From IMG/VR virus record IMGVR_UViG_2703718836_000001: a DNA stretch of 22,661 nt. The stretch is one strand, 5' to 3'. The translations under genes and the position numbers were made by a program. This DNA comes from a virus. Its lineage: Duplodnaviria; Heunggongvirae; Uroviricota; Caudoviricetes. The notes below the pieces were generated by a model. The model was not told the origin of the DNA, did no database searches, and worked only from the letters and a program-made list of their open reading frames with translations. Positions 14,931-22,661 of the stretch are shown in pieces (within the stretch, counting starts at the first letter, position 1; each line of letters starts with the position of its first letter).

Positions 14931-16664
14931 TTAAAGCGAGCGGATCCCATAGGACTCAATGTGGTCAGACAGCGTGTCTTCTTTCTCGTACAGCATGGCT
15001 CTGCCAACCGCCATAATCAGCGCAACTGCACCATCGATTTTGTTTTCCGCCTGCTCTTTGACGGGCTTCACCACATCATCGTTACCCGGAATGGTTTTGC
15101 CGACCACGTTGCCGATACACCAGGTCATGATGGGATTGCCATCATGATGAAAGCGCCCCGATTCAATTGCCGCTTCCAGCTCTTTCATCGGGTCGGACAT
15201 GTTGGTGTAGTTCTGAATGATAGTGATGGGGTTCAGGTCTTCATCAGCAAGGTCATGTGACAACCCGGTCGCCCCGAAGGGGTCGATGGGTGACTCACTG
15301 ACCGGGCTGATTTTGTTCGCCGCTTTGGCCTCCTCGAGGATGTAGCGATAATCCACCTCCGCACCATCGGTAACGGTCAGAACGCCCATTTCCACCCATT
15401 TCTGAAAGCGTTCGGCTGTCCGTCGATCTTCATTTTTCTCGACGCTGTACACCGTGTCATACGGTACCCAGAAACGCGGGGCCACACTGTAGTAATGCGT
15501 TTTACCGTCAATCTCGCGGGTATAAAGTCGCGCCATGCTGTTCATATCCAGCTTACGCGCCAGGTCAAAGGCCAGAATGCACGGCTGCCCCTCGAACTGC
15601 TCAAGGGTCAGTGATTTATCCTCGCAGCTCTGCCAGCTCACCAGGTTGAAATACGCCGAACGCGCCGACACCCAGATATTGAGGTGTTTTGTTTTAAAGA
15701 CGTTTGCCAGACGGGCGTTATTTTTCGCACGCTGCTGCTGACTTAACAAAAATTCGCGATAAACCGACACGCCAATATTTGGATTGGCTTTTTCCAGCAC
15801 CTGCGGGTCGGTCCAGTCGTCACCTTCATCAACGGTATAGATGATCCCGAACAGTTCATCATTAGGCACCGAGCCGTTGAGCATCTCGATTACTTCCCGC
15901 CGTTTGTCGTAGCACGGCCCCTCAATGTTGTACCCGGCGGTAGTGATAGCCCACATCAGTGGCTGACGTCGCGCCCCCATCCCGGTAAGCATCGTGGTGT
16001 AAAGCGCATCTGTGGCGTGCTCGTGATATTCATCCACCACCGCACAGTGGGGTGATGAACCATCACCGGGGTTACCGATCAGCGGTTCAAAACGCGCACC
16101 ATCCTCCGGACGGTTCATGTTTGAGGCGTTAACCTCAATCCCGAACGCTTCCGTCAGCATGGGTGTGCGTTTACACATCAGTCTTGCCGGACGAAAGACT
16201 TCCCATGCCTGTTTCTCCGTCGTGGCACCGGAATACACTTCCGCGCCGAACTCGTTATCACAGGCAAAACAATACAGGGCGACACCGGCAGAGATTGCCG
16301 ATTTGCCGTTCTTACGGGGGATTTCGGTATACACCTCCCGGAAGCGGCGCAGCCGGGAGCCTTTATTGACCCAGCCAAACGCGCAGCAGATCACAAAGAG
16401 CTGCCACGGCTCCAGCGTGATGGGCATCCTCTTAAATGCCCACTCACCCTTGGTGTGCGGCAACAGCTGAATAAATTTGGCGGCCCGTTCAGCCAGGTCC
16501 TTGTCGAAGCGGTAACGAAACGACTTACTTTTTTCCGCCATCAGGTCATCAAGATGGCGCTGGCAGGCCTGAATCACAAACTGGCAGGCCACAATCTTTC
16601 CGCGCACGACATCCCGGGCATACTGATTGGCAGCATTTACGTTGGGGTAAGATTTCCGGCTCAT
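14931..16664 (-). CDS. Terminase large subunit
   Basis: 577 aa; Walker A-like IPRKNGKSA; ATGA overlap with the TerS stop. Confidence 0.9.
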
Positions 16665-17155
16665 GATTCGATAATTTTCAGAAACGGGTTAGTGGCTTTC
16701 TTCTTCCCCGCAAGGCCAATCAGACGCTGGCGGCTGCTGGGGTCGAGTCCGAGCATTGCCCCCGTACTGCTCATCTCGGACTCCTGTTCTTTTTTGGCGG
16801 TCAGCTCCGGATTTTTGACCATACCGCCCATTGCACCGGTGATGGTGTTGCCCTGTCTGGCAATATTTTTCACGGCACGTCGCCAGAACTCGTAGGCCAC
16901 GCACCACCGCTCAAGCACCGCGAGGTCAGTCACGCACAGCAGGCCCTGACCGCAGAGTTCTTTAGTTGTCAGTTGCCACATGATCGTAGCGAGAGGGAGA
17001 TCTTCTTCAGCGAACCACTCCGGTGGCTCAACACCTTTGATGGGCGTAAAAACAGGTTCATCTTTATTCAGGGCTCGCTTGCCGGGGTTTCCGGCCAGCG
17101 CCTTGCGCGCCGTTGGCTTGGGGCGACGCCCGGAACGCCCCGCCGTTCCAGCCAT
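16661..17155 (-). CDS. Terminase small subunit (P27 family)
   Basis: N-terminal [29 protein letters not shown] motif; ORF track start at 17164 is GTG, while the ATG at 17155 has an AGGAG RBS about 10 nt upstream. Confidence 0.8.
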
Positions 17156-17164
17156 ATGCGGCAC

Positions 17165-17280
17165 TCCTGGTTAAATTTCATTTTTCGCGGGTATAAAAAA
17201 ACGATGGGGCGGGCAGTCCGGAAGACGTCAGGTCACAGAGATTTGACCCGCCCCTCCCCTCAGACAGTTGAGAGTTATTA
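17165..17280. other. Candidate cos / packaging recognition region
   Basis: Non-coding gap between HNH and TerS, the position of cos in HK97-like phages; contains GGGGCGGG (17204-17211) and its reverse complement CCCGCCCC (about 17248-17255). Confidence 0.3.
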
Positions 17281-17631
17281 TCACTTAAGCCGTTCACGGG
17301 CCGTCTTCGCCTTATGGCACGGCCAGCACAGACTCTGCAGATTACTGTCGGCATCAGTGCCGCCATGTGCTTTAGGGATGATGTGGTCAACGGTTTTCGC
17401 TTCACGCGCCACACCAGCACGCAGACATAACTGACAAAGGCCTTTGTCACGTTGCAGCACACGCACGCGAATAACATCCCACTTAGAACCATAACCGCGC
17501 TGATGACGGGATTGTCCTGGCTTGTATTGCTTCCAGCCCTCGCTTTTGTGGCTTTCGCAGTAGCCTGACGGGTCTGTGGTGGTATGGCGGCAGCCACGAA
17601 CGCGGCAGGCTTTTGGGGTTCGTGGGGGCAT
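17281..17631 (-). CDS. HNH endonuclease (terminase-associated, HK97 gp74-like)
   Basis: 116 aa with Cys/His motifs CRVRGC...C..H, DHIIPKAHGG, N...LCWPCH; directly upstream of cos and TerS. Confidence 0.85.
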   Translation of the reverse strand: MPPRTPKACRVRGCRHTTTDPSGYCESHKSEGWKQYKPGQSRHQRGYGSKWDVIRVRVLQRDKGLCQLCLRAGVAREAKTVDHIIPKAHGGTDADSNLQSLCWPCHKAKTARERLK

Positions 17632-17644
17632 TGGACACTATCGT

Positions 17645-17672
17645 TGCTTATGTTTATAAAAAAAGCCCTGCT
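17645..17672 (-). terminator. Intrinsic terminator after the small acidic ORF
   Basis: Stem GCCCTGC / GCAGGGC (17655-17672) with loop TTAC, followed on the minus strand by a 7-nt U-tract (plus A-run 17648-17654). Confidence 0.5.
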
Positions 17673-17710
17673 TACGCAGGGCATAAAAACTCAATATTGA
17701 TACTATGAAT

Positions 17711-17941
17711 CTATTCCAAATCCCAACGTGGAATATTTATTATCTTACCAGGAGTTAAGGAAAATTTGGCTTTCTTCAATATCTCAACATTAGCATCATC
17801 AGGAATCACTAAGAAGTACGAATAGTGCATTTCTCCAGAATTCCCATGATTCTCCTGAATATCATCTTCGCTAACTCCCGACGCTTCAAGCTCATCAACT
17901 GTGAGTCCTAAATAATCAGCTAGCTTTTGTATATCAATCAT
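17711..17941 (-). CDS. Hypothetical small acidic protein (orphan, AT-rich)
   Basis: 76 aa, about 15 Asp/Glu; ATG at 17941 with GAGGTG RBS 4 nt upstream; followed by its own terminator. Confidence 0.5.
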   Translation of the reverse strand: MIDIQKLADYLGLTVDELEASGVSEDDIQENHGNSGEMHYSYFLVIPDDANVEILKKAKFSLTPGKIINIPRWDLE

Positions 17942-18240
17942 TAATCACCTCACATATCAACGATGAGGCATCATCATCACACACTCTAGCAAAAGCTTCA
18001 ACTTATTGTTATTATTAAAATAATTCTATACAAATTACATCTAATGTATATCCTATGATACGATAGATGCGAATATTAATGACAAACAACCATCGTATTT
18101 CTCTGAAAAATGGCAAGTATCACTCATTATTCCCCATGCATCTATGTACTCTGTTCATGGTCAAGCCATAACTATATTTAATGCAAGAATACGGAAAGTT
18201 AAACAAATAAACGTTGATACACTAACATTCCACAAACTAG

Positions 18241-18534
18241 TTATACTAATGAAGTAGGCAATTCTTCCTCTGAAATTCCCAATACTCTCCTATCGGCCCG
18301 CAATTTTGCTATAGCGCACACTTCACTATAAGATGGTGCGGAGTTCTCAGGATAAAGTACATACTCAAAATGCGGCGGAGGATTGAATATTAAAACTGAA
18401 TACCCAGCTTCTTGAAGGATATTTTGGACGATTGAATAATAAGGTCTACGCTCATCAAACCAATAACATCCATTCCTTTCTATTGACACGATTGCTTTTT
18501 TTGCGTGCTTCTTATAAACCCATGCCTTATCCAT
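18241..18534 (-). CDS. Hypothetical protein (orphan, AT-rich)
   Basis: 97-aa ORF; weak RBS; two CTACGTA motifs just upstream; no family recognised. Confidence 0.4.
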   Translation of the reverse strand: MDKAWVYKKHAKKAIVSIERNGCYWFDERRPYYSIVQNILQEAGYSVLIFNPPPHFEYVLYPENSAPSYSEVCAIAKLRADRRVLGISEEELPTSLV

Positions 18535-18682
18535 ATCCTGTCAAAAATCTCTCTACGTAATTGAACAATAACACTACGTAGTAGTCATACACCAGAATAT
18601 CTAACATATCAATCCAGCAACATTTAATTATTTTAACTTAATATGAAAAAGTCTTCAGTGATTATAATTTCACACCTATATA

Positions 18683-18973
18683 TCAATTCAGTAACTTTTC
18701 AGAGCCTGTGGCCAGTCTTTGGACACGCTGTTGTTGGACAATAGCTCGAATATGAGACTTGTCCGTATTACATTGCCCTAATGCAGATAACAAGCTCGCA
18801 TTTAAGTTGAGACTTGCACCATACGTCAGAGGGTCTGGTATGAGCGGTATAGGTGTTTCAGAAATCAAACTAGTTGGTAGTGGTGTAACCGGAGTGCTCA
18901 CGTAAACTGTCCGCGTACTTCCGCAACCGATCAGCAGCGGCAGCAGGCACAGGACGTGAAGCACAATCATCAT
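18683..18973 (-). CDS. Rz1-like o-spanin (outer-membrane lipoprotein)
   Basis: From the internal Met of ORF 18683..19141: MMIVLHVLCLLPLLIGCGS... (hydrophobic signal plus lipobox-like LIGC), Pro-rich mature part; starts inside the Rz gene in another frame. Exact start uncertain (a TTG two codons upstream is possible). Confidence 0.55.
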   Translation of the reverse strand: MMIVLHVLCLLPLLIGCGSTRTVYVSTPVTPLPTSLISETPIPLIPDPLTYGASLNLNASLLSALGQCNTDKSHIRAIVQQQRVQRLATGSEKLLN

Positions 18974-20145: not shown

Positions 20146-21537
20146 TCACTTAATAGGATTTGGTTTTATGTCGTCAAGCCAGTCGTTATCACCTCTTAGC
20201 TTGGCTACTCGTCCTTCAACATTAGTTAACGGTTTATAAGCAGAGTATTTGCCTATAGCCCTAGCAGAATGCTCTCCAGCAACACGATAATTTTGGAAGT
20301 CCAACTCAAGTCCATGCTGCTCCGCTCTCATTCGAATATAGCCACGAAGCATGTTTTCTCTAAATCGAAACCAAGATGGACGATTCCCTAAAGCAGGGAT
20401 GATGATGCATCCAAATGTCGGTTTCTTCAATGCATTGAACTTTCGCTCAAACGTGGATTTATCTAAAGGTGTTACATCAAGCGATTTGCAAATTTTAACG
20501 TACGATTCTGATATATGAGTCTTATGTCTGGTCAAATCAGCCATATCGGACATAGCCCAAAGAATATGCTTATATGACTCATCACGTCCCTCTGTTGCAT
20601 CCGTGTAACTTTGCCTTAAAGTTTCCGAGACTGAATCAATTGCATCATTTAACCCTTTAATGAAAAGGTTGTAGTCAACAGAGCTGTATTCACGTATTGA
20701 GCTTTGACATGTTAAAAGGATTTTTTCACAAATAAGATGAATGTAGTTCGGGAACCCGTCACTAAGACCCGCAATTTTATAGCGGACAGAATCATCGACA
20801 GTCAGGCCAAACTCATCGAAAGCATTATCAATTATTTGAAAACGACCATTCCATGGTAAACTATCGAGATGTACCTGATGTATTTGTCGCTCACTTGATT
20901 TATGCCCTCCGATTAAAGTAACGAGAGAATCACCAATCCCCGTAAAAATTAATTTTACTTCACACGCCTGATCACCAAGTTGCTTAATGAGTGATCCAAA
21001 CTTTTGTCGTTCTTCATCAGAGTCAATTTGGTCAAACTCATCGATAACTATATAAGGAATCTTTGAGTGAACTTTAGTTAAAAATTGCAACGCCCGAACG
21101 GCTGCAGAAACTGAGTCAATTTTCAGTTCTGGATAATTATATTTTTGATTTTGACCAGCATTGATACCACCAATTCCAGCCACATTTAAGCCAAAGCTCC
21201 ATCCCTGTGTATCGATTTTCTTATCCTGAGGTGTGCCTCGCAAAATAATGTCATTCATGACACTTGAAAAAGTGGATTCTTTCTCGCAGCCAACCAAAAT
21301 AGGTTCAGCATCTTCCTGCAGCTTAAAAGCAACAGTTTGCGCTAAGGATGTCTTTCCTACTCCGCGATCACCATAAATGAAAGCATGCCGACCTGTAGCA
21401 TAAAGCGCCAATTCGAGATCGGTTACATGTTTTTCACGTCCAAATAACAGTTCCATAGAAACAACTGGACCCGTTGGTCGCAAAACTTTATGCAGTTTAT
21501 GCATAAAGTCTCGCAAAGAAAGACCTCCACAGAGCAT
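20146..21537 (-). CDS. P-loop NTPase, AAA+/ATPase_2 (Arch_ATPase)-like N-terminal domain with uncharacterised C-terminal half
   Basis: 463 aa; Walker A GDRGVGKTS preceded by LLFGREKHV, Walker B YIVIDEFDQ, sensor-1-like LIFTG. AGGAGA RBS 6 nt upstream of the ATG. AT-rich (one hand-counted 60-nt stretch about 37% GC, against about 65% on a sampled stretch of the sheath gene). Confidence 0.8.
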   Translation of the reverse strand: MLCGGLSLRDFMHKLHKVLRPTGPVVSMELLFGREKHVTDLELALYATGRHAFIYGDRGVGKTSLAQTVAFKLQEDAEPILVGCEKESTFSSVMNDIILRGTPQDKKIDTQGWSFGLNVAGIGGINAGQNQKYNYPELKIDSVSAAVRALQFLTKVHSKIPYIVIDEFDQIDSDEERQKFGSLIKQLGDQACEVKLIFTGIGDSLVTLIGGHKSSERQIHQVHLDSLPWNGRFQIIDNAFDEFGLTVDDSVRYKIAGLSDGFPNYIHLICEKILLTCQSSIREYSSVDYNLFIKGLNDAIDSVSETLRQSYTDATEGRDESYKHILWAMSDMADLTRHKTHISESYVKICKSLDVTPLDKSTFERKFNALKKPTFGCIIIPALGNRPSWFRFRENMLRGYIRMRAEQHGLELDFQNYRVAGEHSARAIGKYSAYKPLTNVEGRVAKLRGDNDWLDDIKPNPIK

Positions 21538-22269: not shown

Positions 22270-22560
22270 TTACGCCAGCACGCCAATTGCCAGCGCACGA
22301 TCGATAAAACGAAATATCAGCTCCAGCTGGGAGCCATACTTCTCTTCAAATGCCACGGTATCCGCATGCAGCTCGTCGTGATGCTTTCTGCACAAAGGCA
22401 ACACAAAGAGGTCATGCGCTTTTGTACCCATTCCACCCTGACCGTGACCTATCAGGTGGTGGGGATCATCAGCAGGCTTTCCACAACATGCACACGGCTG
22501 TGTCTTAACCCAGCGCGTGTACTTTTCATTAACCCAGCGGCGACGTTTTGGGCGTAACAT
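22270..22560 (-). CDS. Nin-region zinc-binding protein (YbcO / DUF1364-like, putative nuclease)
   Basis: ORF track extends to 22650 (GTG), but the ATG at 22560 has a GGAG RBS 6 nt upstream and gives a 96-aa product; CxCCGK...HHLxGHG...C..HH Cys/His pattern. Confidence 0.45.
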   Translation of the reverse strand: MLRPKRRRWVNEKYTRWVKTQPCACCGKPADDPHHLIGHGQGGMGTKAHDLFVLPLCRKHHDELHADTVAFEEKYGSQLELIFRFIDRALAIGVLA

Positions 22561-22661
22561 AAAAGACTCCGGCGACTCCGGATCCACTTTCAGCGCCAGC
22601 ACCTTTTTCGCCTTATCATGGATGATGCTGGTGGCAGGAATCGAAGGCACAAGGTCACTTT

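Follow-up and report, generated by a model that had tools for sequence, protein, structure and literature searches.

Two questions are raised by the non-coding gap that separates an HNH endonuclease gene from the small terminase gene (TerS) in this stretch of viral DNA, namely whether it holds the cohesive-end site (cos) that marks the ends of the virion genome, and which of its elements the packaging proteins would read there. The window, that is, the whole stretch analysed (22,661 nt; IMG/VR record IMGVR_UViG_2703718836_000001), has on its minus strand the coding strand of all the relevant genes, whose positions are given on window coordinates (Table 1). Here, I argue, with a probability of roughly 0.85, that the gap is the cos site of a temperate phage of the SfV/SfI type, with head and packaging genes of the HK97 kind, carried as a prophage.

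The packaging region and its boundaries

The gene order is HNH, non-coding gap, TerS, the large terminase gene (TerL), a 60-aa ORF, portal, prohead protease and major capsid protein; the HNH, TerS, TerL, portal, protease and capsid ORFs are intact, all six have full-length Pfam matches, and they are ordered as in an HK97-type packaging module. The HNH protein, whose SfV counterpart is orf53, has as its top match in the PDB the entry 5h0m (E 1e-11), titled merely 'HNH endonuclease', and TerS bears the RefSeq name 'phage terminase small subunit P27 family'. The genes for a Q-like antiterminator, a holin, an endolysin and an Rz spanin are found upstream of HNH and mark the surroundings as the late part of a lambdoid prophage.

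ATG 17155 is the most likely start of TerS and is preferred to GTG 17164, because an AGGAG sits 8 nt upstream of the ATG, which is also the annotated start in SfV; the program-made ORF list begins the gene at the GTG, a codon overlapping the AGGAG ribosome-binding site. With this start the gap extends over 17156-17280, so that the interval described in the first-pass annotation as 116 bp of non-coding DNA is indeed non-coding, but measures 125 nt. Two ORFs spanning cos, 17178-17684 on the minus strand and 16973-17434 on the plus strand, are spurious.

Table 1. Coordinates in the window of the cos elements and of the adjoining packaging genes
Feature	Positions	Strand	Remarks
Cohesive end TGCCCGCCCC, 10 nt, predicted 3' overhang	17206..17215	minus	Identical to the decamer missing from the SfI run-off reads; the SfI record ends here
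GGAC, directly 5' of the predicted bottom-strand nick	17216..17219	minus	A 17217 and C 17216 invariant, G nearly so
TCAAATCTCT motif, directly after the G box	17237..17246	minus	AAAT and C.CT invariant or nearly so
G-rich box GGGGAGGGGCGGG	17247..17259	minus	G-rich in 38/38 distinct sequences; 17251 and 17252 invariant
Most conserved block TTTTTATACCCGCGAAAAATGAAATTTAA, +7 to +35 from the top-strand nick	17171..17199	minus	Proposed TerS site, cosB equivalent
HNH endonuclease gene, 116 aa	17281..17631	minus	Pfam HNH, E 5.5e-16; packaging-associated nuclease upstream of cos
Small terminase gene, 164 aa from ATG 17155	16661..17155	minus	P27 / Terminase_4 family; Pfam PF05119, E 2.4e-21
Large terminase gene, 577 aa, HK97 gp2 type	14931..16664	minus	Pfam TerL_ATPase and TerL_nuclease

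The stretch between the Rz spanin and HNH is an AT-rich island (17640-18700, 31-39% GC vs about 55% in its flanks) that looks like a moron insertion. It holds an ORF of 76 aa at 17711-17941 (phrog_31861, function not known) and another of 97 aa at 18241-18534 without a family match, and is closed just before HNH by a strong intrinsic terminator at 17682-17665. SfV is devoid of this insert of about 1 kb, its HNH gene following directly after Rz1, and similarity to SfV begins at the HNH start codon. Further upstream, a minus-strand ORF of 463 aa (20146-21537; phrog_6841, E 6e-103, function not known) lies between the Q-like antiterminator and the holin, an interval that is a frequent position of cargo genes in lambdoid phages. 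At the window edge, upstream of Q, a minus-strand ORF of 126 aa (22270-22650) matches the C-terminal part of PHROG 96 (profile positions 208-334 of 334), which is annotated as HNH endonuclease, and is a second HNH-like gene.

Identity with the cos of SfV and SfI

The gap is 100% identical to that of SfV once the ends of the SfV record are joined, and it matches SfI from -55 to +56 with a single difference, at +1. When the window is compared with phage records by megablast, it shows 97% identity to Shigella phage SfV, and the linear records of several relatives break inside the gap; TerS is 98% identical to copies in S. flexneri prophages. For SfI, the termini of the virion DNA have been sequenced, and a stretch of 10 nt, 5'-TGCCCGCCCC-3', is absent from both run-off reads relative to the prophage; the authors describe packaging by cos, as postulated for SfV (PMC3636060). 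SfI, SfII, SfIV and SfV have, according to the authors of the SfIV study, a common cos (PMC3851460). The window shares with this group the decamer and the gene order, and its site itself is without difference from that of SfV and, save for position +1, from that of SfI.

The decamer TGCCCGCCCC has a single copy in the window, at 17215-17206 of the minus strand. The predicted nicks fall at 17206/17205 on the minus strand (top-strand nick) and at 17216/17215 on the plus strand (bottom-strand nick), the position of the latter being derived from the 10-nt gap of SfI. Since the run-off reads of SfI leave a gap and not an overlap, the 5' ends would be recessed, and the overhangs of an SfI-type cos would be 3', a polarity on which the SfI paper makes no statement and which agrees with that of HK97.

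The first-pass annotation had placed cos in the HNH-TerS gap, as the mark of the virion genome ends, by means of a rule drawn from HK97. At the level of sequence this placement is upheld: the gap is that of SfV, it carries the SfI decamer, and TerL and HNH are homologous to those of HK97. The SfV-type cos is, however, already published and the copy in the window is identical to it, so that the observation as first made adds nothing new; the inverted repeat on which the placement had also leaned (see below) was the wrong reason for the right site, though one of its arms lies in the cohesive end.

GenBank records of the SfV family are linearised at four different points within this one gap. The breaks fall at 17223/17222 in SfV and SfIV, at 17206/17205 (the mapped end) in SfI, at 17171/17170 in ST64B and at 17281/17280 in SfII, whose record begins at 17280; the boundary of the SfV and SfIV records is 17 nt upstream of the end mapped in SfI, with which it disagrees. 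The IMG/VR relatives are nearly all prophage excerpts, and only the records of HK97, HK022 and SfV end at or near cos. One contig from a metagenome-assembled genome (L021) stops 10 nt before the overhang and is uninformative on physical ends.

As nothing in the window proves inducibility, and as many E. coli prophages of the SfV-type family are cryptic, the site might be a relic, lodged in a defective prophage or in one that follows another packaging route (e.g. headful), with no ends formed here. This is improbable, for the packaging and head ORFs are intact, SfV, with which the cos region is identical, is a viable phage, TerL belongs to the HK97 cos type and SfI has defined ends. Under the preferred reading of a cos site of SfV/SfI type, both the genome ends and the activity of the prophage in the window are predicted from its identity with SfV and SfI.

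Conserved blocks and the inverted repeat

Conservation was assessed with TerS as query against one genome per species, which yielded 43 loci, from Escherichia/Shigella to Xenorhabdus, Photorhabdus, Morganella, Gilliamella and Cupriavidus. The alignment was anchored on CCGCGAAA, is nearly gap-free over the upstream 100 nt, and comprises 38 distinct sequences (the window and 37 relatives); being anchored through TerS, it was not chosen for the TCAAATC motif. Three blocks with fixed spacing are conserved across the 38 sequences. The first is made of the G box and tcAAATC.CT (17259-17237); the second, GgAC.GCC (17219-17211), is centred on the predicted bottom-strand nick; the third and strongest is TTTTTatacCCGCGAAAAATGAAaTTtAA (17199-17171). 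Exactly 21 nt separate TCAAATC from the GAC that comes after it. The anchor CCGCGAAA is invariant, and its flanking positions keep 90% conservation or more over a range that spans Escherichia, Xenorhabdus, Gilliamella and Cupriavidus. The most conserved part in the 37 relatives is ACCCGCGAAAAATGAAATTTAA at +14 to +35, flanked by A/T tracts and lying approximately in the zone to which TerS binds in HK97; within the block, ACCCGCG and then A5 occupy +14 to +25. By analogy with the TerS of HK97, which is an unrelated protein, the block from +7 to +35 is proposed to be the TerS binding site, equivalent to cosB.

Among the relatives, only the 5' half of the overhang (YGCC) is conserved, the 3' half and the region of the top-strand nick being variable; the contrast between the strongly conserved bottom-strand nick and the variable top-strand one would fit a scheme in which sequence specifies one nick and the other is measured 10 nt away. 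From the predicted bottom-strand nick the G-box/TCAAATC element starts 31 bp upstream, and from the top-strand nick 41 bp, about three and four helical turns. A literature search found no experimentally determined role for this element in any phage, and searches with the motif strings found no phage paper on the motifs.

The GC-rich inverted repeat that had been regarded at first pass as a terminase recognition or cleavage element is present, with a spacing that differs from the one given (about 36 bp): the plus-strand arms GGGGCGGG (17206-17213) and CCCGCCCC (17247-17254) form a perfect 8-nt inverted repeat and are 33 nt apart (41 nt from one start to the next). Chance accounts for the repeat, perfect inverted repeats of at least 8 nt being found in 5.9% of mononucleotide shuffles of the interval (P ~0.06) and in 38 of the 376 windows of 125 nt in the 22.6-kb sequence (10%). 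The folding of the gap is ordinary as well, with a z of -0.41 for RNA and of -1.2 for single-stranded DNA. The proximal arm makes up the final eight bases of the cohesive end, and the distal arm is part of the separately conserved G-rich box.

One might still take the repeat for a functional unit, be it as a dyad to which a dimeric packaging protein binds or as a cruciform or hairpin recognised by terminase, given that its perfect, GC-rich 8-nt arms bracket the region upstream of the cut and that an independent 8-nt repeat, TAGGGGGG / CCCCCCTA, occupies nearly the same columns in three Gilliamella prophages. The comparative data already largely refute this. In the 38 distinct sequences, the longest inverted match between the arms averages 5.5 nt within a genome vs 5.4 nt between genomes; in the relatives, the arms pair in register at 60% of positions, the same value as in shifted registers; a formal count gives 72.7% paired, where shuffles reach 74.4 +/- 1.3% and also score higher for covariation; and HK97, where both motifs are equally spaced, has an inverted match of 5 nt only. 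The cut, in addition, splits one arm from the rest of the element, and the folding values and the chance expectation of 6-10% point the same way. A functional dyad or cruciform was rejected on conservation and covariation, and its probability is very small. Judged from the alignment, the arms are pieces of two separately conserved motifs and the inverted repeat is incidental, a chance overlap that arises because the G-rich box and the C-rich cohesive end are complementary by composition in the SfV-type lineage. The repeat as a unit was given up as the element recognised or cleaved, its complementarity being neither conserved nor covarying and its arms belonging to different motifs.

Even more improbable is a role at the RNA level, in which the repeat would be an intrinsic terminator or attenuator ending the HNH transcript (8-bp GC stem, ATCG, T7). 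A run of seven T does stand 4 nt after the C-rich arm on the minus strand, and the MFE fold does pair both arms; a terminator scan of the gap that accepted loops of 3-8 nt nevertheless made no call, the arms being 33 nt apart and the T run 4 nt off the stem. The ordinary fold energy (z = -0.41) led, together with the scan, to the rejection of a terminator or RNA hairpin; moreover, the stem is not kept in relatives, transcription has to cross the repeat to reach TerS and the remaining late operon downstream, and a canonical terminator is found elsewhere, upstream of HNH (17682-17665). A second hairpin around the G box (CAGGG...CYCTG; in Photorhabdus GGTAGGG...CCCTACC), convincing by eye, was also discarded for want of excess complementarity: Watson-Crick pairing is 4.24 within vs 4.22 between genomes, and 5.61 vs 5.77 when G-T pairs are included.

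With cos rather than the repeat as the functional unit, a three-part mechanism may be put forward. Read on the minus strand in the direction of transcription, the G box and TCAAATC (17259-17237) are followed, after 21 nt, by the cut site GGAC/TGCCCGCCCC/A (17219-17205), where staggered nicks leave 10-nt ends, presumably as 3' overhangs; the third part is the block ACCCGCGAAAAATGAAATTTAA (+14 to +35) with its A/T tracts, which would be bound by TerS. By analogy with HK97, TerS may sit on ACCCGCG with the flanking T and A tracts, and its binding may stall or position TerL on GGAC/YGCC, while the HNH protein may stimulate cleavage or share it with TerL. The G-box/TCAAATC element, which would be the first part of cos met by a motor arriving from the previous genome, may be read by the TerL-HNH nuclease pair or have a role in termination like that of lambda cosQ. 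Which protein reads which block is thereby assigned provisionally.

HK97, lambda and the two halves of the site

HK97 has 10-nt 3' overhangs (PMC9410871, PMC11331095), its HNH protein gp74 is needed for cos cleavage and is essential in vivo (PMC13595911), and its TerS binds +15 to +29, reading the C:G pair at +21 and the shape of the adjoining A-tract (PMC11331095). The TerS site in the HK97 record is CTAACCCGATTTTTT, in agreement with the numbering of PMC11331095 (T16, C:G at 21, A:T at 24-29). The right end of HK97 reads ...GGGCAGGGGGGGGGATCAAATC-(21 nt)-GAC CGCCGCCAAA and its left end begins GTTTGAATTTAACGCTAACCCGATTTTTTT; the window reads GGGGAGGGGCGGGTCAAATC-(21 nt)-GAC TGCCCGCCCC, then ATCGTTTTTTTATACCCGCGAAAAATG. 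Common to both are a G box (GGGCAGGGGGGGGGA in HK97) at the equivalent place, TCAAATC, the 21-nt spacer to GAC, a C-rich end of 10 nt, which in HK97 stands at the mapped cut, and an ACCCG core with A/T tracts some 15-30 nt downstream, at the TerS site of HK97. TerL and HNH are homologous in the two phages, with 26% identity to gp2 (E 2e-29) and 40% identity to gp74 over 65 aa (E 9e-11), respectively. The comparison with the SfV and HK97 cos, suggested earlier as a check, comes out in favour of the site, with the full identity of the SfV gap on one side and matching motifs and spacing in HK97 on the other.

The likeness has its bounds. HK97 has TGAC where the window has GGAC, the ACCCG core is at +14 in the window and at +18 in HK97, with the downstream sequence otherwise unlike, the overhangs TGCCCGCCCC and CGCCGCCAAA agree at 4 of 10 positions, and HK97 has an extra ORF between HNH and cos. 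TerS has no detectable relation to HK97 gp1: BLASTP finds no similarity between them, hhalign gives a probability of 0.2%, and gp1 is without a Pfam match, whereas the TerS of the window is a Terminase_4 protein. A search of the PDB with the TerS sequence gave no match, and a single-sequence AlphaFold2 model (pLDDT 39.7) is too poor for a fold comparison with gp1. Across 12 divergent proteins of the P27 family, Arg142 of TerS is invariant and Ser141 nearly so, and the N-terminus in the window has R7-S8; the 'arginine clamp' of HK97 TerS on DNA consists of Arg7/Ser8 and Ser127/Arg128, in a protein whose homology to the TerS of the window is undetectable.

Lambda has 12-nt 5' overhangs, the Nu1/gpA terminase and IHF sites, and no HNH partner. 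Its cosQ-cosN-cosB layout is nonetheless similar in outline, with an upstream element, a site of staggered nicks and a downstream region for the small terminase with bent DNA; the G-box/TCAAATC element stands where lambda has cosQ, and a cosQ-like role for it is an analogy. No sequence similarity to the lambda site was seen, and the small subunit is a Terminase_4 (P27) protein, TerL is like HK97 gp2 and an HNH gene is present, none of which is of the lambda type.

The reach of the left half of the site was followed by scanning viral contigs for the pattern GGNTCAAATC-N21-GACCGCC, which gave at least 120 matches. Among the matches listed, 107 adjoin HNH, TerS or TerL genes, ten have neither a G box nor such a neighbour and are chance-like, and three are truncated or rearranged. 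A single left half is joined to six types of right half among the matches listed, although the pattern fixed 16 positions plus the spacing, so that conservation of the left half in this set is partly built in; unbiased support for it comes from the TerS-anchored set and HK97. The right halves are of the HK97 type, the SfV type, ...CGCCGCAGGTTAGAAAAC-T8-GGGG, ...ACGCGCCCAAAATAAGAAAC, ...ACACCCGCGAAATTAAAAATTTC and ...CGCCGCGAAATGCAAAC. Again among the matches listed, HNH is 57-79% identical to that of the window across the non-HK97 types (34-40% in the HK97 type) and TerL 36% to 89% across the same non-HK97 types; as the right half changes, TerS falls to 26-33% (50% in the nearest type) or to undetectable similarity, and the equivalent of the most conserved block (17171-17199) changes with the TerS type. 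The retention of HNH, with TerS diverging along with the right half, indicates that the right half follows TerS and that the left half travels with the HNH/TerL-type module as a whole. Since the distance from the end of the upstream ORF to the G box varies from 11 to 243 nt among the matches listed, the position of the G box is tied to the cut, and the HNH gene does not set it.

These distances also bear on the chance that the G-box/TCAAATC element is no part of cos, and is conserved instead as a remnant of a tRNA, as a site of the attachment type or as a signal that regulates the late transcript. TCAAATCC does resemble a tRNA T-loop, and papers dealing with tRNA-like transcripts and with prophages contain the string TCAAATCCCT. 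Neither ARAGORN nor Rfam has a match at the element, however, its distance to the cut is fixed while that to the upstream gene ranges from 11 to 243 nt, and every right-half type among the matches listed has it together with TerL and HNH of the HK97 type; membership in cos is thus favoured and the other origins are unlikely. A tRNA-like origin of GGNTCAAATCC was rejected, as ARAGORN found no tRNA in the window and Rfam gave just two sub-threshold sRNA matches, both at the terminator, ~17655-17765.

Mosaic junctions were observed inside the 10-nt cohesive end, where left flanks that are almost identical lead into unlike right halves. The viral contigs L157, L150 and L247 diverge after GGACCGCCGC(CT), and in L237 a left half of the HK97 type meets a right half of type C; the right side of L247 is not a TerS region. 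It may tentatively be suggested, at somewhat less than even odds, that HK97-type cos is modular, the left half being read by TerL-HNH in a cosQ-like manner, the right half by TerS, and the cohesive end serving as a preferred recombination joint. The universal left half (G box, TCAAATC, 21 nt, GAC/YGCC) would then be a cleavage or termination element of a cosQ-like kind not described before for HK97, and phages would swap TerS specificity at the cohesive end, as fits the junctions of the four contigs.

To sum up, the site fixes the virion genome ends for a prophage family of E. coli and of serotype-converting Shigella phages, whose SfV-type region is found in 1124 of 5426 complete E. coli genomes; it is of use for annotation, for conventions on the boundary and orientation of prophages, and for the design of cos-based packaging or transduction vectors. 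The modular left/right anatomy and the upstream element, as read from sequence comparison, may offer a modest lead to those who work on HK97 packaging, for whom a G-box/TCAAATC element kept at a constant distance from the cut, together with right halves linked to TerS, would be a concrete and cheap target for mutagenesis.
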